64,000 nucleotides of DNA from Candidatus Bathyarchaeota archaeon (GCA_963782525.1 CAWAKC010000003.1:224001-288000), one strand, 5' to 3'; counted from the first letter of the stretch, positions 3,802-22,008 are shown. Translations and numbers: made by a program. The notes: generated from the letters alone by a model not told the origin.

Positions 3802-4650
3802 TTAGGCGGAGGGTAAGTTAAGCATGGTAGTCGTTTCATTCCATAATCGCTTTTGGAGTGACTCATCATAAGATGTTAGGCAAGTAGCGCTTTCTTTTTT
3901 CTTAGCAAAGCATTTTCCAGTGACATCCCTTACCTCGTTGGATGAGGCTAAATAGACTGATGTTTCTGCCCCTTTCTTTGCATTAATCTGCATTGGGCGA
4001 ACCATCTTGAACATGATAGAAGACCGTAAGCTTCCGCTGTTTTTTCCAAGATTAGTAGCTACAAAACCCGGCATCAAAACATTTGCTGTAACTCCACTTC
4101 CCACCAACCGCCTAGCCAACTCATAAGTAAACATCATAAGCATCAACTTCGCATTTGAATAAACTTGCATTCCCTTGTAATCTTTCACACTTTGCAGGTC
4201 ATCAAAATTAACTTTACCATTCTTCGCTAACCCAGAGCTTACATTAATTATTCTAGAAGGCGCACTGACCTTTAGTAAGTCTAGCAACTTATTCGTCAAA
4301 AGGAACGGCGCCAAATAATCTACCGCAAATGTACGTTCAAAATCCTCAGGCGTAACCTCACGTTTACTGAATTCTCCGCCAGCATTGTTAACCAATACCT
4401 CCAATCGACTGTATTTTTTCTTAAATTCCCTTGAAAAATCTCTTATCGACGCCATCGATGACATATCACATAACATCAGACTAACAGATTTATTACCGGT
4501 CTTTTCGATTATTTCAGCTAATGCTTTTTCTCCCTTCTCTTGATTACGAACAACCATTACAACCGTGGCGCCCATTTCTGCTAAAGCAAAAGCGGTCTCT
4601 TTGCCTATCCCCGAGTTACTGCCAGTAACAATACAAATCTTACCAGACAT
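3802..4650 (-). CDS. SDR family oxidoreductase (retinol dehydrogenase-like)
   Basis: TGSNSGIG, NNAG, YSNAK (YxxxK), PGFVATNL. Confidence 0.92.
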   Translation of the reverse strand: MSGKICIVTGSNSGIGKETAFALAEMGATVVMVVRNQEKGEKALAEIIEKTGNKSVSLMLCDMSSMASIRDFSREFKKKYSRLEVLVNNAGGEFSKREVTPEDFERTFAVDYLAPFLLTNKLLDLLKVSAPSRIINVSSGLAKNGKVNFDDLQSVKDYKGMQVYSNAKLMLMMFTYELARRLVGSGVTANVLMPGFVATNLGKNSGSLRSSIMFKMVRPMQINAKKGAETSVYLASSNEVRDVTGKCFAKKKESATCLTSYDESLQKRLWNETTTMLNLPSA

Positions 4651-6340: not shown

Positions 6341-6468
6341 CGAGAGCGACCTGTGAATTTTCTATTTCTTTTTTTAACTTTTTCTGCTAGAAGCAAAAAA
6401 TAGGTGCTTTGCAACAGTAAGGATAATTCTTAATTATTCAATAATGCAATTTACCCGATGGGATTTAC

Positions 6469-6639
6469 ATGGTTAACGAGTTTAGAAAACGTATTGACCT
6501 TTTGGGGCTCGATGAGGAAAATAAGAAGAAAGTCATCGAGTTAATCGAGGAAGCAGGAAGGGAATTTCCATGTTTAGCATGTCCTTCAAAAGATACCTGC
6601 GAAAACTTCAAGTGGTACATAAAATGGCTTAGCAATTAG
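6469..6639 (+). CDS. Small Cys-motif protein (CxxCxxxxxC), 56 aa; below the ORF-track cutoff
   Basis: MVNEFRKRIDLLGLDEENKKKVIELIEEAGREFPCLACPSKDTCENFKWYIKWLSN. Confidence 0.65.
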   Translation: MVNEFRKRIDLLGLDEENKKKVIELIEEAGREFPCLACPSKDTCENFKWYIKWLSN

Positions 6640-6983
6640 CCACAACCTTAGCGGAGGCTTTAGTCGGAAAGTTTTTAGCCGTTCAAATTAAAGAGAAATC
6701 ATCGTAGTTTTCAACTCCTTTGTACGTGCCACCAGGGCAAAAAGCGCGGGGTATCAGGGCACATTAACCATAGATAGAGAGTAAATGTTAATTGGGAATG
6801 ATTTTTACTGGTAAATTGGGGCTAGTACCCCCACTCAGCGCCTAGAGTAAAAAATCAGAAGTTCAAGTGTTAAGAAAAGTTTTGAACCATTTTGGGTATG
6901 GGGACGGGCGCCTTCAAACTTGGTCAAAATTTGCAAAGATTAGTCTTATTCAATGAGTTTGAGTAAGGGACCCATACCGTGTA

Positions 6984-8606
6984 CAGACTGTGTTAAAACT
7001 CACCGCTAAAGCCTGAGATATCTGGCGCCTAATCTCTTGTCTTCGATTACCTGCACTTACTTTCTTTTTCCTTACGCTTTAATCAAACCTATTAGCATTC
7101 CAACTCCAAGAATATTGATAGCCCTTCTCATATTGTAAGCCAACATAGTGAAACCAACCTCTCCTCTCACTTTCCTAAGACCCTTCAAAAGCACATAACC
7201 CTGATTAAAAGCCCGCTTCATCGTCCCAAACGGATGCTCCGCCAACAACCGCCTCAAACGAAGCATCTTTTTGCCCTCCGAACCCTTCAACCGCTCCCTT
7301 AAACGATCAACCGCCCCATCATATTCACCCCTGAACATATACCGTCCACGCTTATTCCTAGTACACCTACCTCTCACCAAACAAGAATCACAACACCTCG
7401 ACCTATACAGCCTACCATCAAAACCTTTGCCGCGGTTACTACGCTTCCAAAAAGGCATCTCATTTCCCACAGGACAAACATACACGTCCTTAGCGGCATC
7501 ATAAACAAATTTGTCAGAGTAAAATTCAGGCTCAGGAATGCCAACGCTCTTGTATGGATTCAAAGCCCCAGGTATAGGCATGAAAAGGGTATATTATTAT
7601 CCTCACAACCTGCAACATCTTTCTCGACGTAGAAACCCTTGTCACTCAAAACAGCTAGCCTATCCACACCTAAGGTTTCCTTCGCTGCTAAAGCGTCCTT
7701 AACCAGCTGATGGTGATCAGTGGAGATATTTATCACGTCATAATCGACAATGAGGTGCTGTTTTGCATCAACGGAAGTTTGAATATTGTAGCCAACTTCA
7801 AGCCGTTGACTATCAACTCGCATTAAACGGCTGTCTGGATCCACAAGTGAAACCTCCCTTTGGCCTGTAGCCTTCATCTGCTCTCGAATTTGCTCATATT
7901 GCTGCCTCTTCTCTTCAAGCTGGCCTATTTTTTCCCTAAGCTCATCAGCAGGTGCATTATCATCGTCCTCTGAATCGTTGGCATCATTAGAATCTAATTC
8001 GTTGAGGTATTGTGCTATCTTTTCCTCTGTCTGCTTAAGCCTCAACGCAACGGTTTTCTCGTTGAGGTTGTTGCTTTTTGAGTTGACAGCCCTAAATTTG
8101 GTTCCATCAATCGCTACAAGTTGCGCACCGTAAAGGTCCAAGCTCCTGCAGAGGTAAACGAATTCTTTGAATACTCCTTTGATGCAGTCTACGTTGTTTT
8201 TTCTGAAGTCTGCGATGGTTTTGAAGTCTGGAGACAGCTTTTTCATGAGCCACATGACTTCGACGTTGCGGTAGCATTCTTTCTCCAGTTTCCTGCTGGA
8301 TCTTACCTGGTTGAGGTAGCCATAAACATAGAGCTTGAGAAGGTCTGAAGGATTGTAAGATGGTCTTCCAGTGTCGGCCAGGCTTGAGTGTTTGAACCCC
8401 AACTTTTCCAAGTTGAGGCTTTCAACGAATGCGTCAATGAACCTGACGGGATTTTCTTTGTCAACATATTTGTCGATGGTGTCTGGAAACAGCACTGTTT
8501 GGTCTCTGTGAGTTCCGTTTACATGTTCGCTCATGGCTTTTCAGTTGTTCTGAAGCTAGCTTTAAGCTTAACGGTAAGTGGACTATAGGACTTTTCACAC
8601 AGTCTG
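6984..8606 (-). mobile_element. Full-length IS1182-family element
   Basis: Terminal IRs cagactgtgttaaaactc (6984) and gacttttcacacagtctg (8589-8606) bracket the transposase. Confidence 0.93.
7072..8534 (-). pseudogene. IS1182 DDE transposase split by a frameshift near 7585
   Basis: GRPSYNP..LLKLYVYGY..SSRKLE, PDFKTIADFR, IDGTK, DPDSRLM, GYNIQ, DKGF, then C-terminal EHPFGTMKR in another frame. Confidence 0.9.
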
Positions 8607-11074: not shown

Positions 11075-11788
11075 CTATATCCCTTTGTTTCCGAACTTGT
11101 TGTAATAGGCAAAATCTTCAATGTCGCGACGTACCCTCAGATACTTGGATGCCCCAGTAGGATAACCTAAACGGCAGCAATAGGCAATTTTTAGTTGATC
11201 AGGTATACCTAAAATCTTTTTAAGCTCTTTTTCCACTGGCGGCGCTGCGAAAGCACTCAGAATCTGCAAACTAATGCCCAGTGATTGAGCCATAAGCCAC
11301 ATGTTCTCCATCACACAGCCCAGACTCATGAATCCCAAAACGTCGCCTTCAGAAGCAGGTGCTCTCTTTTGGGGGTCATAAACCAAAATTAAAAGACATG
11401 GGCTACCCCTGATGGATTGAGTCAATGGCATGGGCTCGCTTTTGCGGGCAGCTTCTGACATTTTTGACGGATCTACCCATGCTGGCGGAAACATCGCTCC
11501 CAAAATTCCGGTCTTCTTCTTGAGCAATTCTTCCTTGGAGAACGAAAGCTGCTCATAATTTTCCCTTAGAAACACCTCTGAAATGCGGGATTTTACGTTC
11601 CCAATGATTTCTAAAATCTCTTTGTCTTCTACGACGATTACCTCGAAGTTTTGCATGTTATGCGCTGTTGGTGCCCATCGTCCAGCATCCAAGATTTGCC
11701 GCAAATCCTCTTTGGACACCTTTTGATTTGGGTCAAAGGGAACTCGGGCTGATTGTCTTTCTTGAATTATTCGTCGGACTTCATTCAT
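11075..11788 (-). CDS. Nitroreductase family protein
   Basis: RQSARVPF, AGRWAPTAHNMQ, ENMWLMAQSLG, LGYP. Confidence 0.9.
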   Translation of the reverse strand: MNEVRRIIQERQSARVPFDPNQKVSKEDLRQILDAGRWAPTAHNMQNFEVIVVEDKEILEIIGNVKSRISEVFLRENYEQLSFSKEELLKKKTGILGAMFPPAWVDPSKMSEAARKSEPMPLTQSIRGSPCLLILVYDPQKRAPASEGDVLGFMSLGCVMENMWLMAQSLGISLQILSAFAAPPVEKELKKILGIPDQLKIAYCCRLGYPTGASKYLRVRRDIEDFAYYNKFGNKGI

Positions 11789-12804
11789 TTTGATTCATCT
11801 TCCCTTTTTAATACTGCCCTAAAATGAACCTTCGCCGTCATCATTCGATCAAACGCAACTGCTGCTTGTTCAAGAGGAAAAACCTCTACCATTGGAACAA
11901 CATGTGTAAGAACACTGAAGTTTAGGGTATCAGCGGTGTTTCCTCCCACCCAACCACTAACGGACCGAACCGCACGCATCAGTTGTGTTGGAGAAATCTG
12001 CATAGGCTCATAAACGAAGGTAACAATGATTAGTTGTCCGTTGCGGGCAAGACCTTCAACGAGGTCTGCGATCGCCTTGCTGTTGGGAGCTGTGCAGAAT
12101 ATGGCTTTTGCACCACCAAGCTTCATCAGTTCCTCGCTGGGATTGGACTTTTCTGAGTCGATGTAGTATTTTGCGCCGAGCTTGCGCGCTAATTCTTCTT
12201 TTTCTTTGCCTCGGGAAACAACAGCGGTCTTCATGCCAAGTCTTACCGCGAACTGCAAAGCTAAATGTCCTAAGCCGCCGAGTCCTTGAATAGCCACTAA
12301 GTCTCCACCCTTTGCCGCGCTGCTCTTTATTGCTCCTAAAGTGGTTGCGCCAGCACACAGAAGTGGAGCAGCTTCCACAGAAGATAATTCGTCAGGGATA
12401 GGTGTTAAGACATCCATGCGGGCAACCATGTACTCAGCATATCCATCGTCGGTTGAAATGCCCGTTGCCAAGGGACTCTCGCAAGCCCAATAATCGCCCC
12501 TTAAGCATGACCTGCACTTTTTGCAGTGTCCGCCACGCCAGCCAACGCCGACTCGTTGCCCAACTTTCCAATAATGCGATTCTGAACCCAACTTGGCGAT
12601 CGTGCCAACAACTTCGTGTCCAGGAGTTCTTGGATACTGAAGCCCAGGGAAGCCTCCGTATTTGACGATGGCGTCGCCGTGGCATATTCCGCAGGCTTCT
12701 ACTTTTAACAGAACTTCGTGTTCTTGTGGTTCTGGAACATCATTTTGTACCAGAACAAATTCTCCGCCTGGATGATTAACCTGGATTGCTTTCATTAAAT
12801 TCAT
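11785..12804 (-). CDS. Zinc-dependent alcohol dehydrogenase
   Basis: CGICHGD, PGHEVVG, CxxCxxC structural Zn, PLLCAG, GLGGLGH. Confidence 0.95.
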   Translation of the reverse strand: MNLMKAIQVNHPGGEFVLVQNDVPEPQEHEVLLKVEACGICHGDAIVKYGGFPGLQYPRTPGHEVVGTIAKLGSESHYWKVGQRVGVGWRGGHCKKCRSCLRGDYWACESPLATGISTDDGYAEYMVARMDVLTPIPDELSSVEAAPLLCAGATTLGAIKSSAAKGGDLVAIQGLGGLGHLALQFAVRLGMKTAVVSRGKEKEELARKLGAKYYIDSEKSNPSEELMKLGGAKAIFCTAPNSKAIADLVEGLARNGQLIIVTFVYEPMQISPTQLMRAVRSVSGWVGGNTADTLNFSVLTHVVPMVEVFPLEQAAVAFDRMMTAKVHFRAVLKREDESK

Positions 12805-12872: not shown

Positions 12873-12903
12873 GTATACAAAAGCATCGCCCAACACACTT
12901 TTT
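12873..12903 (+). repeat. Asymmetric 26-30-bp repeat, copy 1
   Basis: gtatacaaaagcatcgcccaacacactttt. Confidence 0.9.
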
Positions 12904-13651
12904 GCTCTAACCCTTGCGCTCGCCTCAAAAAACTGCAAAGATAGTTAAAAATTGCGAAAAATTCGAAATCGAGCGAACTATATATAATCATACATTTAAT
13001 TTGGAACATAAATCGGGGAATCTTCGATTTTTCTAAAGCCGCAGGGCGAAATTGGAAAAAAAAGCAGGTGACTCAAGTGAACGATTAAGTTAAGTTTTCT
13101 TAGTTAGACTTCGGGTCGGACCATTAAGGCTCTCAGATGATAAAAACAGCATAAAACAACTCTCAATTATGTTTTTTTGCTAACACGCTTTGAGCCAGCC
13201 GCTGGTTTAGATGCTCCTTTGACACCATAATCTTTCATTCGGCACCTTGACCTGCTCAATTCACAGCGTTCAGACTATCTTTTTAGTCAACAGGTATGCC
13301 GATTAATTAGTTGCTCGTGTCTTCCTGCGCTAAAGTTTTGCTCTTCAGAAGCGTGAGAGCGTTTTGCTTTGCGAAAAACAATCGAATGTACATTTTTTAC
13401 ATTAAAAAGTTAAAAAAGCACTAATGTAATTAAATGAAATTAGTCATAACTGTCTATTTATTCGTCCACACTTCTGTTTTTGCAATAGGATCACCGAAGA
13501 ATAGCGAAATTTTACAAATCAAACAGAAAACTCGAAAAAATGGGGAAGACTATTTCAGAAAGGCCAAACTATAGATTTTAAACCGAAGTCAAAAAAAAAG
13601 GGTGCCGAAAAATGGTTTGGGGAAAGTAACCGAAGCTTGCAAAGGAGTTAC

Positions 13652-13681
13652 AAAATGTGTTTGGGTGATGCTTTTGTATAC
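13652..13681 (-). repeat. Asymmetric repeat, copy 2
   Basis: Reverse complement gtatacaaaagcatcacccaaacacatttt; identical to copy 4 over 30 bp. Confidence 0.93.
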
Positions 13682-13772
13682 CGTTTCCACTCATGCCCCA
13701 CCTCGCTATCAAACCCAATCTTCTATCGACATAATTTTTGCGCTCTTTGCTTCAATTTTTGGAGAACTGCTT

Positions 13773-14474
13773 ATGAGTGTTGAACGGAATCTGTTAATTT
13801 CAATCCTAAAATTAACCAAAGAAGGACCAGTTTTAATTGAAAATGTCAATAAAGAGGCAAGGATACCATCCACTGTTTCATTGGAGTTGCTGGAAAAACT
13901 GCAAAACGAAGACCTCCTTTATCTAAACAACGGCATTATAGAAGCAGAAAGTAGCAGCAGAATCAAATTAGCAGTTAAAGCAGTATCTCAAGGAGCAGTC
14001 ATCGAACATATCAGTAACCTACTTTGCTGGCAAGAGTTTGAAGAAATCGCCGCCATAGCGCTCAAAAACAACGGGTACATTGTGAAAAATAATGTAAGGT
14101 TCAAACATGGAACCAAACGATGGGAAATAGATGTGGTGGGCTGCAAAAAACCCCTGGTTGTCTGCATTGATTGTAAGCATTGGCAGCATGCAATTTCATC
14201 GTCGGCTTTGAAGCGAATAGTTGATTTGCAATCGCAGAGAACTCACGCCCTAGCGGATTCATTACCCAATCTTAAATTAAAATTTGAATGTGATAAGTGG
14301 GAAAAAGCCAAGTTTATCCCAACCGTGCTGTCGCTTGTCCCCAGCGCTTACAAATTCTACGACAACCTGCCGGTGGTCCCCGTTCTCCAGCTTCAAGATT
14401 TTATATGTCAACTGCCAGCCTATATAGGGGAATTAAAAATTTTTTCCAAAACCTTCAAAACGCTTAAGACATAA
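13773..14474 (+). CDS. Winged-helix + Mrr-like PD-(D/E)XK restriction endonuclease-fold protein
   Basis: WQEFEEIAA..L..NGY, RWEIDVVG, CIDCKHW; N-terminal HTH-like segment. Confidence 0.8.
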   Translation: MSVERNLLISILKLTKEGPVLIENVNKEARIPSTVSLELLEKLQNEDLLYLNNGIIEAESSSRIKLAVKAVSQGAVIEHISNLLCWQEFEEIAAIALKNNGYIVKNNVRFKHGTKRWEIDVVGCKKPLVVCIDCKHWQHAISSSALKRIVDLQSQRTHALADSLPNLKLKFECDKWEKAKFIPTVLSLVPSAYKFYDNLPVVPVLQLQDFICQLPAYIGELKIFSKTFKTLKT

Positions 14475-15332
14475 CTTTTAGGATTGAAGTTTTAGCAAGC
14501 TTAAATGCTGGATAAAGGATTAAGATGAACATTATAATTAAGGCTGCAAGTAACCACAAGGCTATTTCCGCAATAGTAAGGCTAGTAACAAGAGGATTAG
14601 TCATTAAAATCATCAAAGTTGTAATCATGCCGAACGAAATGCCCACGGCAAAACTGGAAAAAAGCACAATTGCCGCTTGAATCGCTGAAATATTGATTAT
14701 TATTCTTGGTTTGGCGCCTACAGCTCGCAAAATGACGAATTCTTGGCGTTGCTCGTCCATCGCAAGAATCATAAAACCCACAACACACAATGCCAGCTGA
14801 AGCTAAGATAAAAAGTGGTAGAAGCATTATTGATTGCCAAGTTGAACCCAGAAAAGCCAAGTTTTGAGTCACTACTCCGCTAAGATCAAAGCCGTCTAAG
14901 TCTGTATTAGTCGCTTTAACCATGTTTCTTATTTCGCTGATTAACGTTTCTCGGTTAACTGAATTGTTTAGCTTAATTAACAGCAGGTTAGGGAAGGCGA
15001 CGTTTTCTGCGACCGTCAAAGTAGAAACCAAGTTGTAGCCTTGAAAAACAAAACCTACTAGATTACAGCGAAAATCAGCCAGGAAATCCTCATCTTTCTC
15101 TGTTAAATCTTGCTCGGCAACGATTATTTTTCCTTTCGTAGGCCTGTCAACTCCACTTATAATGTTGAGGAGGGCGGTTTTTCCTGATCATGAAAACCCA
15201 CATATAACGGACGAATTTTGCCCGTGGAATCTCTAGATTTATGTCTTTTAGAACAGTAACTTTGATGTTGCCCAATTCGTAAGTCTTTTCCAAGGCCTGT
15301 GTAGAAACCATTAGTCCATTATCTTGGCTCAT
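14464..15332 (-). pseudogene. Collapsed ABC transporter locus: LolD/MacB ATPase N-terminus fused to permease C-terminus
   Basis: Degenerate Walker A (SGKTALLNII), GFVFQGYNL..LTVAENV, joined directly to the FtsX-type tail EQRQEF..LRAVGA; several frameshifts. Confidence 0.8.
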
Positions 15333-15406
15333 TAAAGCTTACCTGCTTTCGCTGATTAATCGTCAGTTGTCTTAAGGTAATAAGTTTGTGGTACGTTTAC
15401 TTGGCT

Positions 15407-15844
15407 CTACTGCTGATAGCTTGTGTCGATGTTGAGGTTTCCTCTATCCCGCTTAAGAATCCTTACCTTGTCTGGGAGCTTGGTTTTTTCCCAGTCCGTC
15501 CAGCTGATTTCTTTGAACAGCCACCGTTTGCCCAGATGCGCTGCGACTACAGCGTGTTTGTTTTCGTTGCCTGCTGGTATGAATTGGTCGAGGAAACGGA
15601 AAAGTTTGTCGATCTGCATTCTTGGGAAATATGCGTAGTAGGTGGCGTTTTTTACTTCGAATGCGTACATATGTTTGCCTTTGCGGGCCATGACGTCTGG
15701 TAAGGGGTTGAGGCTTGGGTTGCTTACGGGGATGCGGACAGCGTTGTAGCCTTTTTTCTGCAGGAGTTTGACTAGGACGGTTTCGCTGTAAAATCCTCTT
15801 TTGCGCCAACGCCTAAGTTTGATGCGGTCAATTTCAGTGGTCAA
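15407..15844 (-). CDS. Hjc/Hje-like Holliday junction resolvase
   Basis: RKRGFYSE..LVKLLQKKGYNAVRIPVS..LPDVMA..AFEVKN (E-PD-ExK). Confidence 0.82.
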   Translation of the reverse strand: MTTEIDRIKLRRWRKRGFYSETVLVKLLQKKGYNAVRIPVSNPSLNPLPDVMARKGKHMYAFEVKNATYYAYFPRMQIDKLFRFLDQFIPAGNENKHAVVAAHLGKRWLFKEISWTDWEKTKLPDKVRILKRDRGNLNIDTSYQQ

Positions 15845-15914
15845 CGATTGTCCCTTTCTTGCATGTATCTATTGGAGCTCTTGAGATAAAAAATTGTTCC
15901 CTTAGAGCATTGAA

Positions 15915-15943
15915 AAAATGTGTTTGGGGATGCTTTTGTATCC
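15915..15943 (-). repeat. Asymmetric repeat, copy 3
   Basis: Reverse complement ggatacaaaagcatccccaaacacatttt. Confidence 0.88.
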
Positions 15944-17579
15944 AACACGTTTAGAAGGTGAGATTGGAGACTGCTGGTGAACATAAATATCTTATGTATT
16001 ACTAATACAACCATAATCACCAATAATGTATTTGGCAACATTCACCGGTTAAAAATAATGGGTATTTAGACTACAGTAAGCACCTGAAAAGCCATCGTTG
16101 ACTTGAAAGAGAGCTCGATACAATGTTTATCTTAGAACCCAAAAACATGAACAAACCGCCGTCAACCCAAAAAATAAGAACAAAAACGTCCTATGAAAAA
16201 CAGAAACGCCGCAGAAGTAGCAAAAATCAGCCGAAGAAAAAAAACCAAAAAATGGCTCAGCCCCCTACTGGAAAACAGCCTGAAAAAAAGATTTCCTTAA
16301 AAGTTGCTTACAAACCCAAAAAGATGACAAAAAAAATTGGTAGCCACAGAATTTCAGAATAAATTTTTATGCAAAAAATTAGCAAAGTTTTCATTACTAG
16401 CAAAAAAAGGCGTTTTTCTTCGAAGGATAGCCGAAAAAATAGGCTTTGGCTTCGCATGGAGATTTTCGAAGGTACTTATATGAGGCTCCGGTAATGTCCA
16501 TGCCAGTTGTTTTGGACCTAAGTGATTAAGCCTTAATTGAAGGTATTTCATTATTTTAGGCTTAAATTGAGCGTTTAGATTATGTTTTCCATAGAAAAAA
16601 ATCACGGTTTTTTGTATTAACCGCATTTCGGAGCAAAACAACCACTATGACATAGGTTTAATCCAAAAAAATCCCAAATAGGAGTTATTTAGAGAAAAAA
16701 AGCTTAACGGCAGCCCGTAAATTTTGTGGCAAAAAATTTTTCCGCTTTTGTCAGAATTGATTTTTTTTAATCTTAATTTTCCAAAACTCACAAGTGTTTA
16801 TGCAACTTAGACTTTTTGTCTTGCAAAATGAAAAAAGTAATCGAACAAACAAAGGTCAATTGCTTAATGCTGTTTTACAAACCTAATGCGATCTAATGGA
16901 AAAAAATCTTTGGCGCTGTGGTTGTTTTTTCTAAGACCACATCCAGAATTTTCAGATTTGCTTCGTGACATACTCAGTCGCATTGAAATTACTGAAAAGA
17001 AAAATAACCTCACCAACTCTCACTTGAAACTTACAAATGGGTTTTCTAGCCACTTTTCTTTTAAGAACTGAAAAATGATTTGCTGGTGCAGAGTTTGGGT
17101 TTTCTAGTGGTTGCCTAAGTTAACGGAATTTCTCTTTGACAAAAAAATCGTTGCAATAGTAAGCGACAGTTGAGCAAGCAAGTGTTGATGTTTTCGTTTT
17201 AATGAAAATGAGTGTTTGACGGTTCTGTGGCTGCATGATTTTTTAACTTCTGTTCAAGCAAGACTGCAATACTGCAGGTGTTAGACAAGTCCCTATCTGC
17301 CCAATGTTGTAGGGGTTGCTTGATTGAAAAACAACTTTCAGTGTTATCGGTGAAAATTGTATTGCTCGCAAAAACATCCATCACTAAGCACAACCGACCT
17401 CACGTGTAACATTCAGCCTGCAGATCAACCAAACTATCCCCTATGGGAAAAGATTTAATTCATTTGAGAGTCTCTTAAGAAGATCTAAGAAATTTGGAAA
17501 TCGTCGATAGCAAAAATCGCTAGTTGAAGTAAATGTTTTGATTTCGCGAACAAAACACACTTGGGAACTCAAAGTTTCT

Positions 17580-17609
17580 GTATACAAAAGCATCACCCAA
17601 ACACATTTT
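17580..17609 (+). repeat. Asymmetric repeat, copy 4
   Basis: gtatacaaaagcatcacccaaacacatttt. Confidence 0.93.
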
Positions 17610-17672
17610 TTACTTTAAGTTCTAGAAAACTTTTTCAGAAATAAACCGATACAAACCATGAGGATAGTTGCA

Positions 17673-18089
17673 ATGTCAAATTTCAAAGTAGTAACAAAAG
17701 CAACCAAGTTCACCACACAAGGAGAAATAGACTTTATAGATTTATCAGACCAGGTCCAAAAAGAAGTCTTTGATTCAGGAATCAGAAACGGAATCGTTCA
17801 TGTTTTTTCTCCACACGCAACCGGAATTTTGGTTCTGACAGAAAATGACGATGCCCTCCTCGAAGACATCAAAGTTTTCCTTGAAGAATTGGCGCCAAGA
17901 CGTGGTCGGTATAAGCATCCGTCTAATGCCCACTCGCATTTGCGATCGATGCTTCTTCCCCCTGACAAGACGCTGCCTATAGTTGATGGGAAGGTTGAGT
18001 TTGGGACTTGGCAGTCTCTGCTCTTTGTTGAAACCGATGTGTACCCCCGGGAACGAAAAGTTATTATCCAAGTCTTGGGCGAGGGATAA
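17673..18089 (+). CDS. yjbQ: YjbQ/UPF0047 secondary thiamine-phosphate synthase
   Basis: PHATG..ENDD, HPSNAHSHLRS, FGTWQSLLFVE.D..R.R. Confidence 0.9.
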   Translation: MSNFKVVTKATKFTTQGEIDFIDLSDQVQKEVFDSGIRNGIVHVFSPHATGILVLTENDDALLEDIKVFLEELAPRRGRYKHPSNAHSHLRSMLLPPDKTLPIVDGKVEFGTWQSLLFVETDVYPRERKVIIQVLGEG

Positions 18090-18607
18090 AATTTAGTTTG
18101 CCCCCCGATTTCAAATCCACAATTGTTAAGAATTTTAGATTTCGTTCTTCGTAAAAGCAAAATATCTAATGAAATATGAAAGTTTAACAATTTAAAGCTA
18201 AATACCCAAGGTTGAATAGGCTATTTTTACTATTTATTGTAAAAAGCGCTTAATCGAACTGAATTCGCAGACTGAAAACAGAAACAAAATAGAAACAAAG
18301 TGCTAACAGCAGCCCTGACGCCTAAAAACCAAAAATAAAGCTACGTAAAATCAGTCAAAGAAAATGAAAAGGCTAAACTTATAGCCAAAAAGTAGCTTTT
18401 GCAAATAATTCTCCGCTAAATTCAACCATAAATGCCAAATGCGCACGCTAATGTCCATTTGCTTTACGTTAATTCAATTCAGATTTTGACAAGAATTCAT
18501 TTTTGCAAAGCAAAAAAGTGTAGGAAGAGATTGGATACTCCCTTTTCAGGTTTCCTTCAGCTTCACAACTGCATGATTATATAAGCTTCGGAGAAATTCG
18601 GAAAAAC

Positions 18608-19348
18608 TTAGCCTTTCCGCTCCGTCCGAATCCGCTTTGATGATCCTTTAGGCCGCATGCGCGCTTTCTTCTTAACTTCAGCTCTCTGCGAAGGCTTTTC
18701 TTCCAAAGCATCAGGCTGCATTTCTTCTATGGGTAAAACGTCGACAGCCTCGGAAAAATCTTCAATAGTTGCCTGTTGTGCCCCATTTTGTTGCATCGTT
18801 TCTATGGCTCTATCCACATCGCCTGGTTCAGCATTAATGCCTAAGGTTGCGTCCATGAGGACGACCACTTCAAAACCAAGCTTGCAAGCGTCAACAACTG
18901 TGTTCACGACGCAGTAATCCGTTGCTAATCCACCGACAAAAAGCCGTTTGACGCACAGGGTTTGAAGGTCGTGTTCAAGGCTTGTGCTGTCAAAAGATGA
19001 GTAAGCTTCCCGTTCAGGGTTTGTACCTTTGGAAATAACAATTGTGTGGGGGGACAGTTTGAGATCAGGACTAAATTTTGCTCCAGCCGTTTCTTGCACA
19101 CAATGTGGTGGCCATGGACCACCCTGCGCCTCAAAAGAAACATGGTTTTGGGGGTGCCAGTCTCTCGAAGCTAAAACATGCCCGTTCGCTTCTACAAAAC
19201 GTCGTATGTAATCGTTCAGGACGGGGATAATTTTGTCACCGTCGTCGATGGGTATGGCTCCGCCGGGCAAAAAATCTTTCTGGATGTCGGTGATTAAAAG
19301 GGCATCAGAGTTTTTTATAACATAGTTTTTACTCAAACAAGTCACCAT
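18608..19348 (-). CDS. pncA: Nicotinamidase/pyrazinamidase
   Basis: DIQKDFLPGG, RDWHP..H, WPPHCVQ, KG....EAYSSF, GLATDYCV. Confidence 0.92.
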   Translation of the reverse strand: MVTCLSKNYVIKNSDALLITDIQKDFLPGGAIPIDDGDKIIPVLNDYIRRFVEANGHVLASRDWHPQNHVSFEAQGGPWPPHCVQETAGAKFSPDLKLSPHTIVISKGTNPEREAYSSFDSTSLEHDLQTLCVKRLFVGGLATDYCVVNTVVDACKLGFEVVVLMDATLGINAEPGDVDRAIETMQQNGAQQATIEDFSEAVDVLPIEEMQPDALEEKPSQRAEVKKKARMRPKGSSKRIRTERKG

Positions 19349-19479
19349 TTTTAAAATCGTTTTGTTATGCTAAAACTAACTTAATTAACGTGAAGATATG
19401 GATAAACTTTTTTACCATTTGTTTTTGCCGGCATGGAAAGGTAATTAAGGCTTCATGAGACTATTTTGTGGTGAAAAAG

Positions 19480-19750
19480 TTGGCAATTTTAGCGTATGTT
19501 CTTTTCAAAGTGGCTTCAGGAACCGAAAGAGCGGTTGCCCAAAAAACTTACCGAATTCAAAGAAGTTAAGGAGGCAGACATTGTTTTCGGTGAATATGAT
19601 GTAATTGCAAGCTTGACGATTGATAGCTTGGAAAAGCTGGAAGAGTTCGTTTCAGAAAGCATCAGGAACGTTCCAAACGTGCTCGTTACTTCGACGATGA
19701 TTATTTCAAGAGAGTATAAGGGCAAGAATACTAAACCAAAAGTCAAGTAG
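19480..19750 (+). CDS. Lrp/AsnC ligand-binding (RAM) domain protein; frameshift in the A6 run at 19541-19546
   Basis: MAILAYVLFKVASGTERAVAQK / LTEFKEVKEADIVFGEYDVIA..TSTMI; GGTGA RBS. Confidence 0.85.
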
Positions 19751-20386
19751 TTTATATTTGAATTTTAATGTTCAGTTCTTCAGGACCAAATTTTAGCGTA
19801 GCTTTTTTCGACTAGAGACAGCGCCCTTCGTTAGTCAGGTGGCTTCACTATAAACTCCTCTATGGTAAATTATGAATATTTCAGCTATTTTGATCATATA
19901 ATCATGGATGGTTTTAACTCTTTAGTGTAAAAAATTAACGTTCGATAGTTTTTCGCTTAACAACGAAGGTCCACTCAGCCTAAACGCGTAAACTTAGCAA
20001 CCCAGTTGAGCTAACGACTTAACCCAAAAAAACAAAACGCGCTTCTTAAGAAGAAATAAAGTTCTAAAAAAAAATTTATGAGCCCGAGAAAACGGGAAAT
20101 CGCAGTGATAACAGATTTTACCTGACTTTGCTGTCTGCTTTAATCGCTTGAAATGGATATTGCGACCAGTCTCTCAGAAAAACCATGTTCAACCGGGAGC
20201 CAAAACGGAGATTTTTTGTGTTTACCGATTATTTTGGACCTGAAATCAAAAATTAACAACTTGCTCTTGCCATAACTGTGAGATTCCTTATTTTAGCTTA
20301 GGCAACAAACAATGAATATATAAGGTTCGTTGAACTTCGATTATTTTGCATTTTTTAGACTGCCAGAATGCGGTTTGAACTTTTTC

Positions 20387-20412
20387 TATGTTTGGGCGAT
20401 GCTTTTGTATAC
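20387..20412 (-). repeat. Asymmetric repeat, copy 5
   Basis: Reverse complement gtatacaaaagcatcgcccaaacata. Confidence 0.9.
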
Positions 20413-20466: not shown

Positions 20467-22008
20467 ATGCAAGCAAAAAACAAAACCCCCAGCATTACAA
20501 GCCGCGAAATGCGTGCCTTAGAAGTAAACGCACAATACTTTGGCGTCAGTCTGCTTCAGCTTATGGAGAACGCTGGACGCAACGTAGCCCAGGAAACCAT
20601 CACACGTTTCCAAAAAAACAAGAAAGCAGCGGTGTTTTGTGGTTTAGGTGGAAATGGCGGCGATGGATTCGTTGCAGCTAGGCATCTTTTGGCTGAGGAT
20701 TTTGAGGTTACTGTTGTTTTAGTCGGAAGAAGTCGAGAAATTAGCCATAAAGCTGCGCTTAGCAACTGGGTTATTCTTGAGTCTCTTAAGGATAAAGTCA
20801 CTTTGATAGAAGTTTCTGATAGTTCACTTATTCCCAAGGTGAATGCAGGCATAATTATCGACGCTTTGCTTGGAACAGGAACAAAAGGAAAGCTGAAACC
20901 GCCAATCGCCCAAGTAGTCGACTACACAAACTCGTTGAATGGCTTCAAGATTGCAGTTGACGTCCCTACAGGTATTGATTCAGACACCGGCGAAGTGTTA
21001 GGCACTGCCGTAAAAGCCGATTTAACCATAACCTTCCACAAGGCAAAGCCGGGGCTGGATAAAGCCAAAAAATACATTGGCGAACTCGAAGTGGTCGACA
21101 TTGGTTTACCAATTGAGTTGGAGCGGTTTGCTGGTCCAGGCGACGTTTCCCTTGTCACTAAACCGCGCAATCCATCAGCTCACAAGGGCGACTTTGGACG
21201 TTTACTCGTTATTGGTGGAAGCGAAGTTTACTCTGGAGCGCCTACATTGGTTTCCTTAGCTGCCATGCGTACAGGAGTTGATATTGTTTATCTTGCGGCT
21301 CCAGCCAAAACGGCTACCACAATTTCCTCCATGTCCCCCGATTTGATCACGATAAAGCTTGAAGGAGAAAACCTCAACCCAGCAAACATTGAAGCAATCA
21401 AACCTTACTTAGGCATGGTTGACGCTGTTGCAATGGGACCGGGGCTGGGCTTGAACCCTGAAACCGTAAAGTTTGTCAAAGCATGTGTGGAAGAGGTTGA
21501 AAAAGCAAAGAAACCGCTGCTTTTGGATGCCGACGGATTGAAAGCGTTTGCAAAATTCAAGCGATTACTAAAGGTTCCGCTGGTGTTGACGCCACACGCA
21601 GGAGAATACGAAATACTTACGGGAGAAACATTGCCTGACAATCAGGAGGAACGCGTCTTGACTATACAGAAAACCGCCAAGAAACTCAACGCCACCATCC
21701 TTGTTAAGGGCAAAGTTGACATCATATGCGATGCCAACCGTTCAAAATTGAATTTCACGGGTAATCCAGGAATGACAGTTGGAGGAACGGGCGACGTCCT
21801 CAGCGGCATTGCCGGCGGCTTGATGGCAATGAACGTAGACCCCTTTGAGGCGGCCGTTGCCGGTGCCTTTGTGAACGGTGCTGCAGGCGACTTTGTTGCA
21901 AATGAAATTGGCTTTCACATGGTGGCAACTGATATAATCGATTGGATACCCCACATGTTTGAAGATCCGATGAGTCATTTGAAGGTGCGCAAGCCAAATG
22001 GAAGCTGA
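20467..22008 (+). CDS. nnr: Bifunctional NAD(P)H-hydrate epimerase/dehydratase
   Basis: LMENAG, GGNGGDG, DALLGTG, VDVPTG, HKGDFG, GPGLG, LTPHAGE, GGTGDVL. Confidence 0.95.
   Translation: MQAKNKTPSITSREMRALEVNAQYFGVSLLQLMENAGRNVAQETITRFQKNKKAAVFCGLGGNGGDGFVAARHLLAEDFEVTVVLVGRSREISHKAALSNWVILESLKDKVTLIEVSDSSLIPKVNAGIIIDALLGTGTKGKLKPPIAQVVDYTNSLNGFKIAVDVPTGIDSDTGEVLGTAVKADLTITFHKAKPGLDKAKKYIGELEVVDIGLPIELERFAGPGDVSLVTKPRNPSAHKGDFGRLLVIGGSEVYSGAPTLVSLAAMRTGVDIVYLAAPAKTATTISSMSPDLITIKLEGENLNPANIEAIKPYLGMVDAVAMGPGLGLNPETVKFVKACVEEVEKAKKPLLLDADGLKAFAKFKRLLKVPLVLTPHAGEYEILTGETLPDNQEERVLTIQKTAKKLNATILVKGKVDIICDANRSKLNFTGNPGMTVGGTGDVLSGIAGGLMAMNVDPFEAAVAGAFVNGAAGDFVANEIGFHMVATDIIDWIPHMFEDPMSHLKVRKPNGS

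Follow-up and report, generated by a model that had tools for sequence, protein, structure and literature searches.

A near-invariant 27-bp polar element upstream of hjc and other genes in Candidatus Bathyarchaeota: candidate operator of a small regulon

What could be the role of an asymmetric, almost unvarying 27-bp element that recurs five times around hjc, the sole Holliday junction resolvase (Hjc) gene of a bathyarchaeal genome? Bathyarchaeia are abundant, uncultured archaea of sediment and peat, and we know of almost nothing on their gene regulation or on programmed DNA rearrangement in them; a full-text literature search for promoter and transcription factor motifs in Bathyarchaeia found nothing related. 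The element lies in a 64,000-nucleotide stretch of Candidatus Bathyarchaeota archaeon (GCA_963782525.1), here called the window, which spans C3:224001-288000 of assembly G000 (2.87 Mb in 12 contigs, with C3 at 464 kb). An initial annotation, made from this DNA alone, read the cluster of copies as a candidate centromere, terminus or origin-type locus. We posit, with evenly balanced confidence, that the element is the promoter-proximal binding site of a predicted protein that controls a small regulon in G000. Congeners and other relatives are coded by genome (G), genus (g), family (f) and fetched locus (L), each letter followed by a number, and the five motif copies are m1 to m5.

The element, its positions and its conservation

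All five copies reported for the window were confirmed by pattern search, direct reading and a gapped regular expression. The pattern search (at most three mismatches) finds the three gap-free copies and gave no match in 100 shuffles, and none of the five would be expected by chance; copies 1 and 3, each one base short of the consensus first proposed, were recovered by reading the sequence and by the gapped expression.

12873..12897, plus strand: motif copy 1, GTATACAAAAGCATCGCCCAACACA, one base short; 28.0 bits
13656..13681, minus strand: motif copy 2; 31.2 bits
15919..15943, minus strand: motif copy 3, starting GGATAC, one base short; 25.4 bits
17580..17605, plus strand: motif copy 4; 32.3 bits
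20387..20412, minus strand: motif copy 5; 30.0 bits

The scores come from a hidden Markov model (HMM) built from 84 sites of relatives, on which the five copies reach 25-32 bits and nothing else on contig C3 exceeds 8 bits. Copies 2 and 4 are, as claimed, identical over 30 bp. The genus consensus of the 27-bp element is G[GT]ATACAAAAGCATC-N1-2-CCAAACACA; it is polar and itself no inverted repeat, and the copies form inverted pairs (3/4, 1/2, 4/5 and 1/5, of which 1/2 and 4/5 face inward) that flank segments of the locus; 1/2 and 3/4 had been described as bracketing spacers. Between the flanking start or stop codons these spacers, A, B and C, measure 968, 1813 and 716 bp, close to the ~970, ~1800 and ~715 bp given earlier.

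As a correction to the initial annotation, the motif is not limited to the cluster. A genome-wide count by gapped regular expression and by the HMM, built from relatives' sites only, yields eight copies in G000, seven strong and one moderate, and by the HMM none lies in coding sequence; the scores are bimodal, with seven sites at 25-32 bits, one at 14 and noise at 11 or below. The three copies outside the cluster are as follows.

C7:299284, plus strand: dispersed copy 93 bp upstream of glutamate dehydrogenase (gdh)
C7:354850, plus strand: dispersed copy 92 bp upstream of the gene (mazG) for a 95-aa MazG-domain protein, a MazG-like pyrophosphohydrolase (Pfam MazG, E=3.8e-10)
C1:526999, plus strand: weaker dispersed copy, scoring 14 bits; an endonuclease-III-like gene (nth) starts 72 bp downstream and is followed by a peroxiredoxin gene

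In G000 every one of the eight sites is intergenic and promoter-proximal, with a start codon 55-99 bp away, and on this point the argument fails that varying orientation and unrelated genes speak against an ordinary operator. Forward-oriented sites precede hjc (99 bp), yjbQ (78), gdh (93), mazG (92) and nth (72), whereas reverse-oriented sites stand 55-57 bp from the start of nnr, 92-94 bp from that of a gene for a winged helix-turn-helix (wHTH)-NERD nuclease and 69-71 bp from that of adh; the distance from copy 5 to the nnr start codon is 55-59 bp in most congeners. Copies 1 and 5 each stand between a gene start, on the reverse side, and a conserved block, on the forward side: adh and block X-A for copy 1, nnr and block X-C for copy 5. 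When the upstream regions of orthologues are aligned, conserved TATA-like boxes stand out 12-45 bp from the motif on the side of the gene: GCTTATCTTT at nnr, TCTTATCTA at gdh, TTTTTATCTC at hjc and TTTAAATATT at adh. These boxes sit within the -60 to -40 window, relative to the ATG, in which the organism's TATA-like hexamers TTAAAT, TAAATA, TTATAT and TTTATA peak in a genome-wide count; in the same count GTATAC and TATACA show no enrichment at promoter positions. GTATAC as a TATA box is thus unsupported and the motif is not simply a TATA box; taken with the boxes beyond it, the missing peak places the motif upstream of core promoters and argues that it is itself no core promoter.

Conservation extends across the order. 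The strict motif pattern occurs in 23 of 24 other genomes of the genus versus none of 16 genomes of other families (reversed control, one match in total), and the first 15 bp, with at most one mismatch, occur in 153 of 201 genomes of the order (reversed control, 0-2 matches per genome), including 51/53 in f1, 42/54 in f7, 38/47 in f11 and 13/25 in f6. By that relaxed search families f4, f5, f10 and f12 came out negative. The 86 distinct sites from relatives agree almost completely even at positions that the search pattern did not specify (G1 86/86, T2 83/86, A3 86/86), in contrast to nnr, whose DNA identity drops to 68-73% within the genus. The full f7 site, GGATACAAAAGCATCAAC(A)AAACTCCC, is the same 27-mer with about four positions changed.

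Synteny holds as well: in all 13 congener loci fetched the order is L38e-(adh-nitroreductase)-m1-spacer A-m2-NERD-(ABC transporter)-hjc-m3-spacer B-m4-yjbQ-isochorismatase-(AsnC)-spacer C-m5-nnr. The adh-nitroreductase pair is absent from some congeners, and m1 is retained there. The spacers are long and conserved in length; beyond the closest relatives they are unalignable save for conserved islands. Sites recur at orthologous promoters of the genus for nnr (15/15), NERD (15/15), hjc (16/16, some variant) and yjbQ (13/17); the gdh (13), mazG (6) and nth (4) sets are biased because these regions were fetched for carrying the motif. The link between motif and yjbQ (forward, ~70-120 bp) is maintained in f1, f6 and f7.

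A predicted operator and the points against it

A 27-bp polar site just upstream of core promoters would serve as an operator or upstream activating site (UAS) for a sequence-specific DNA-binding protein. Eight G000 promoter regions would be marked in this way, five in the locus and three dispersed (gdh, the MazG-like gene, and nth with the peroxiredoxin gene), and copies 1 and 5 would additionally face orphan promoter-like blocks in the spacers. The proposed regulon, which we hold jointly with the binding-site reading and at the same even balance, comprises hjc, the wHTH-NERD nuclease gene, yjbQ, nnr, adh/nitroreductase, gdh, mazG and nth, a target set that may be read as a small damage-control and housekeeping regulon. 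What we infer beyond the observed positions, conservation and synteny is protein binding to the element, a promoter role for the TATA-like boxes and co-regulation of the genes. The initial annotation had itself held that copies scattered over the genome before functionally related genes would point to a transcription factor operator, and the three dispersed copies do stand before genes; sites are found in several promoter regions and are kept at the orthologous promoters.

Archaeal promoter-upstream operators or UASs of small regulons include the Thermococcales TGM/TrmBL1 system and Ptr2 sites. Like these, the motif sits just upstream of a transcription factor B recognition element (BRE)/TATA region at unlinked promoters, in either orientation, and is conserved among relatives. 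Were the operator reading correct, the predicted regulon would join Holliday-junction resolution, base-excision repair, nucleotide sanitation and NAD(P)H-hydrate repair, and the near-invariant 27-bp site offers a concrete handle on it: an oligonucleotide could fish out the binding protein. In sister families the same site frames an apparently integrase-driven invertible segment.

Several observations weigh against this reading. We identified no cognate DNA-binding protein. Unlike the archaeal operators and UASs just named, the motif is 27 bp long, asymmetric and near-invariant across the order, far longer and more invariant than usual operators; it shows no graded weak sites (25-32 bits, then at most 14), has no cognate factor assigned to it, and has five of its eight sites packed into 7.5 kb. 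Many f7 copies are not promoter-proximal, and in the f7 pairs with short spacers both copies adjoin the 3' ends of convergent genes. Dispersed f7 and f11 copies lie 137-392 bp from open reading frames (ORFs) of at least 60 aa and none is beside gdh, mazG or nth, so that regulon membership beyond yjbQ would be lineage-specific. The functional coherence of the targets is our own reading. The wHTH-NERD gene is absent from genera g24 (0/4) and g20 (0/2), where the motif is present, and is present without the motif in families f5 (3/4) and f10 (2/3). Site length and invariance, the orphan blocks and the integrase link of the sister families are not accounted for by a promoter-proximal operator.

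The wHTH-NERD nuclease was considered as the motif binder and rejected, because its distribution differs from that of the motif; it could at best be a target. Other candidates are neighbours only, to be taken as leads: a ribbon-helix-helix protein beside nth (C1:526315-526887), whose gene is divergent from nth and 114 bp from the C1:526999 copy; an ArsR-like protein of 82 aa beside mazG (C7:355226-355474); and PadR-like genes at f7 and f11 copies. The last, so classed by eye, are three divergent genes (L160:2702-3133, L161:1894-2286 and L166:1042-1410), each with a dispersed f7/f11 copy 137-201 bp upstream, and could encode cognate regulators.

Recombination, transcription and replication as alternatives

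Could a small cassette with a tyrosine integrase, be it a fimS-like invertible switch or a domesticated insertion sequence (IS)-like element, instead use the motif as its inverted or terminal repeat for recognition? The G000 copies would then be still recombination-competent or relics, and the locus a set of invertible segments. We consider this unlikely for G000, although the sister families lend it support. A small integrase-family gene adjoins or lies inside all 19 '-,+' pairs examined in f7 and f11: at short-spacer loci it is of a 191-217-aa type and adjoins the pair, and elsewhere it is internal to the pair and either of a 231-238-aa type or related. The f7/f11 small integrases match PHROG integrase (E=6e-9 and 5.5e-10), and their Pfam matches fall below the cut-off (0.0078 and 0.057). 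In f7, a comparison of G170 with G146 shows the 250-bp core between the repeats flipped with respect to the flanks on either side (71.7% over 254 bp, E=1.7e-24). Within the genus, two of 14 genomes, G014 and G015, carry the m1-m5 segment the other way round with respect to L38e and nnr; the two are mutual nearest neighbours, so that a single event is probable. The invariance over 27 bp is itself like that of recombination sites.

Against recombination in G000, neither integrase type has a homologue there (none by tblastn; HMMs against the six-frame translation give a best E of 0.9), the other integrases of G000 lie elsewhere, and no such integrase occurs in the 13 congener loci or in two of two f6 pairs. 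Spacer B keeps one orientation relative to hjc in 14 of 14 genus genomes, and all seven long-type f7 loci share a single internal orientation. Homologous recombination of spacer A with spacer C, paralogous and inverted over ~500 bp, would explain the m1-m5 inversion, and dispersed copies at orthologous promoters would be hazardous were they active crossover sites. Contigs of four DNA runs contain no strand-changing joint among the matches listed, weak evidence given that inversions could be rare; the only 'goes back' joints and loose ends in them stem from other motif copies. The earlier suggestion of recombination sites of invertible segments gains comparative support: two copy-bounded inversions and the integrases at the f7/f11 pair agree with it, whereas G000 is without that integrase.

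The fimS invertible switch is served by the ~200-aa FimB/FimE recombinases. Like fimS and other invertons, the f7/f11 inverted repeats surround a 250-300-bp segment next to a gene for a 191-217-aa integrase-family protein, and two genomes differ in the orientation of the f7 segment. Unlike them, G000 and its genus are without the integrase, the spacer of the core pair is fixed (14/14), and solo copies stand at housekeeping promoters; by inverton criteria G000 has the flanking inverted repeats and lacks a nearby dedicated recombinase. Chromosomal invertons are little studied in archaea, one preprint reporting 12 putative examples from 42 archaeal long-read datasets (10.1101/2023.03.11.532203).

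Regulation and recombination might also be two faces of one order-wide site-specific DNA system, an idea that we entertain only tentatively and think doubtful. An ancestral, integrase-linked invertible cassette, fimS-like in character, would have had its element multiplied and co-opted in the genus, and a single protein-site pair would both connect hjc, the nuclease, nth, mazG and nnr in a damage-control regulon and permit programmed or recurrent inversion of the hjc-yjbQ segment.

In L134 of G030 a 273-aa ORF (6411-7232, minus strand) adjoins one motif copy and has primase-polymerase-like motifs by eye (DIDN, SGNGLHIH), with no Pfam or PHROG match; an inverted partial duplicate of the small integrase gene stands beside the other copy, as it does in L145 and L146. 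Integrase-family matches cluster within ~20-70 kb of the motif locus in three single-contig genomes (G003:C1:896560-942808, G014:C1:1865946-1949860 and G040:C1:1206823-1223632), a density that suggests a zone rich in mobile elements.

The motif could itself be a transcription signal, either an outward promoter or a fixed 5' leader, that drives hjc, yjbQ, gdh, mazG and nth and, in addition, RNAs that extend into spacers A and C, non-coding or antisense. Its conserved polarity is consistent with this, as is the gene that follows forward at ~70-150 bp at five of eight G000 sites and in long-type f7 loci (an ABC operon, a DRG-like GTPase gene and yjbQ), and copies 1, 2 and 5 point into ORF-less spacers with conserved blocks. 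We nevertheless judge such a signal improbable: GTATAC and TATACA lack the promoter-position enrichment, no BRE-like bases are conserved upstream of G1, separate conserved TATA-like boxes intervene between motif and genes, and nnr, NERD and adh face the reverse side at constant distance. Rfam gave no match in 9-24 kb at E<=1, and there is no tRNA near the cluster. A search for RNA datasets that contain the 7.7-kb stretch listed none.

Replication and segregation, the functions favored by the initial annotation, fare worse. An Orc-type origin at the cluster is excluded. The observation that the site is no canonical origin recognition box (ORB) and has no cdc6 nearby was borne out, and the origin reading fails: canonical ORBs with the G-string (TTCTCCAGTAGAAAC-N3-GGGGTG) are confined to C7:364576 and C7:365018, beside orc1-1 (C7:365249), and none lies on contig C3 near the cluster, which has no orc1 gene near it either. 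Like ORBs at Orc1/Cdc6 origins, the motif is long, polar, widely conserved and arranged in inverted pairs round AT-rich DNA; unlike them, it is unrelated in sequence, has no adjacent initiator gene, and lies on a different contig from the true ORBs. Those two ORBs, TT(T/C)TCCAGTAGAA(G/A)C...GGGGTG (L128:3576-3599 and 4018-4041), are 442 bp apart and directly upstream of orc1-1, and the pair is likely the oriC of the genome; the second orc1/cdc6 gene (C10:98933) has no such ORB pair in a repeat scan.

There remain polar sites for replication termination, a dif-like or structural-maintenance-of-chromosomes (SMC) boundary locus, segregation, or a non-Orc origin protein, which together we regard as highly unlikely. 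The cumulative GC skew minimum of contig C3 (230-250 kb) falls on the cluster, and the negative-to-positive switch there is among the two strongest in the assembly, ranking top at a window (W) of 150 kb (C3:242000) and second of 486 positions at W=100 kb. Single-contig G003, sampled at 51%, however, has such a switch neither at the locus nor at its orc1 genes, and G000/G003 synteny is heavily scrambled; GC skew, seen in G000 and not repeated in G003, was set aside as evidence. Similarly, orc1-1 and the locus are 51.1%, 51.7% and 50.8% of the chromosome apart in G003, G014 and G040, but only ~4-41% in the other single-contig genomes, at fractions of 0.24 in G136, 0.31 in G170, ~0.05 in G104 and ~0.33 in G120, and, with NERD as a proxy, ~0.12 in G089, ~0.41 in G092 and ~0.40 in G080 (genome sizes rounded for G104, G120, G089, G092 and G080). 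Antipodal position to orc1-1, true of three single-contig genomes only, was accordingly rejected as a general link, and the terminus or centromere reading is not established by either line.

The long, length-conserved non-coding spacers recall the 1.9-kb dif-containing boundary of Thermococcus kodakarensis (PMC11840125), and integrase genes are dense round the locus. The likeness to that boundary and to archaeal Xer/dif (PMC2958812) lies in an unusually long non-coding region with conserved flanks, a recombinase association in some lineages and a near-antipodal position in three genomes. Unlike these, the motif has no 11-6-11 inverted repeat, is multi-copy, and has a terminus link unrepeated in other single-contig genomes. 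By the dif pattern taken from PMC11840125 (TAA-N6-8-TTA within 11-bp inverted arms, at least 8/11 matching), the spacers hold no archaeal-type dif; the window has five matches, of which the one in 12.8-20.5 kb, at 14889, falls in an ABC transporter remnant. Eight copies in G000 do not make a single-copy terminus site, and the order + - - + - within 7.5 kb does not form the two opposed blocks of a Ter/Tus-like fork trap. The promoters of gdh, mazG and nth have one copy each, that of mazG ~10 kb from orc1-1. A Pfam scan of the 16 ORFs of 9.4-22.6 kb, with no search aimed at ParA or SegA, gave no ParA/SegA-type gene. No general link to an origin, a terminus or dif was found.

That the copies are alike by chance, or are the ends of an ordinary multicopy miniature inverted-repeat transposable element (MITE) or IS, can practically be dismissed: copies 1/2 and 4/5 are indeed inward-facing inverted pairs, but none of the 100 shuffles held any match, there are just eight copies per genome, all at positions conserved across species, the 12873/13681 pair has no target-site duplication by eye, and there is no transposase. 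Separately, a loose regular expression picked up another repeat (starting TTATAAGAAAACAAAAGCAACCC...), at least 50 bp long and present in six identical copies outside the window, unrelated to the motif and probably an IS or other multicopy element (G000 C1:377017, C3:307967, C9:120562, C10:83278, C11:10575 and C11:112169).

Genes and conserved blocks of the locus

The genes of the locus were assigned by Pfam, with a structure model added for the wHTH-NERD nuclease.

11075-11788, minus strand: nitroreductase, forming with adh the pair 11075..12804
11785-12804, minus strand: Zn-dependent alcohol dehydrogenase (adh)
13773..14474, plus strand: 233-aa wHTH + NERD/Mrr-type PD-(D/E)XK nuclease
14464..15332, minus strand: ATP-binding cassette (ABC) transporter remnants, with an FtsX-like permease fragment
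15407..15844, minus strand: hjc, the sole Hjc gene of the genome (E=1.2e-13)
17658..18089, plus strand: yjbQ (UPF0047)
18608-19348, minus strand: isochorismatase-family gene
19496-19750, plus strand: stand-alone AsnC/Lrp ligand-binding (RAM) domain gene
20467..22008, plus strand: nnr, bifunctional NAD(P)H-hydrate repair enzyme

The two nuclease genes noted earlier inside the cluster are both there, Hjc recognized by Pfam and the NERD/Mrr protein by Pfam and by the model, which gives it an N-terminal winged helix. The true start of the NERD gene is 13773 (MSVE...). Its product is modeled (predicted local distance difference test score, 89.9) as a winged helix joined to a restriction-endonuclease-like domain, with VC1899, the Can2/Card1 nuclease domains, AF1548, FokI and wHTH regulators as the closest structures; D120, D133 and K135 are invariant in 24 orthologues. 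The ABC transporter, whole in relatives (an ATPase and an FtsX-type permease of ~620 aa), survives in G000 as fragments, ~1.8 kb short of the L038 version.

The spacers contain conserved blocks, promoter-like or otherwise non-coding, in place of ORFs, which is why the cluster looks poor in genes.

12947..13012, plus strand: block X-A, BRE/TATA-like (GCGAAC-TATATATA), no ORF behind it, paralogue of X-C
13371..13415, plus strand: element 2-A, a conserved 45-bp block whose only other copy in the genome is element 2-C
15957..16028, no strand assigned: GGTGA / TCACC(A) boxes enclosing AT-rich sequence next to copy 3, on its inner side
16420..16510, no strand assigned: spacer-B block of ~90 bp, GCTTCGCATGGAGATTTTCG..GTACTTATATGAGGCTCCG..CCATGCCA, with dyad symmetry round a TATA-like centre
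19912..19956, minus strand: element 2-C, inverted paralogue of 2-A (86.7% identity over 45 bp)
20300..20365, minus strand: block X-C, BRE/TATA-like, inverted paralogue of X-A

Block X and the spacer-B block resemble the BRE/TATA consensus of the organism and have no ORF behind them; X-A and X-C may thus be promoters. The spacer-B block is kept in 14 of 14 genus genomes, to the same degree in all six frames, and is the most conserved non-coding DNA of the locus after the motif; its dyad arms are CATGGAGA...TCTCCATG and CGGAG...CTCCG, round a TATA-like GTACTTATATGAGG. A 95-aa ORF overlying it (16354-16641) is conserved in 13 of 13 relatives but alike in six frames; equal conservation of this kind marks the block as non-coding and the ORF as probably no gene, and it was rejected as one.

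Spacers A and C each hold a single copy of block X and of element 2, inverted with respect to one another, and the rest of the genome has none; these two spacers are partly paralogous over ~500 bp. The two blocks have a common sub-motif, GCGAAAAA-N2-3-(A)TCGAA. A 46-aa ORF (13434-13571) begins ~20 nt past element 2-A and is conserved in the two closest relatives only. The GGTGA/TCACC(A) arrangement at copy 3 recurs inside the inverted pair of family f7.

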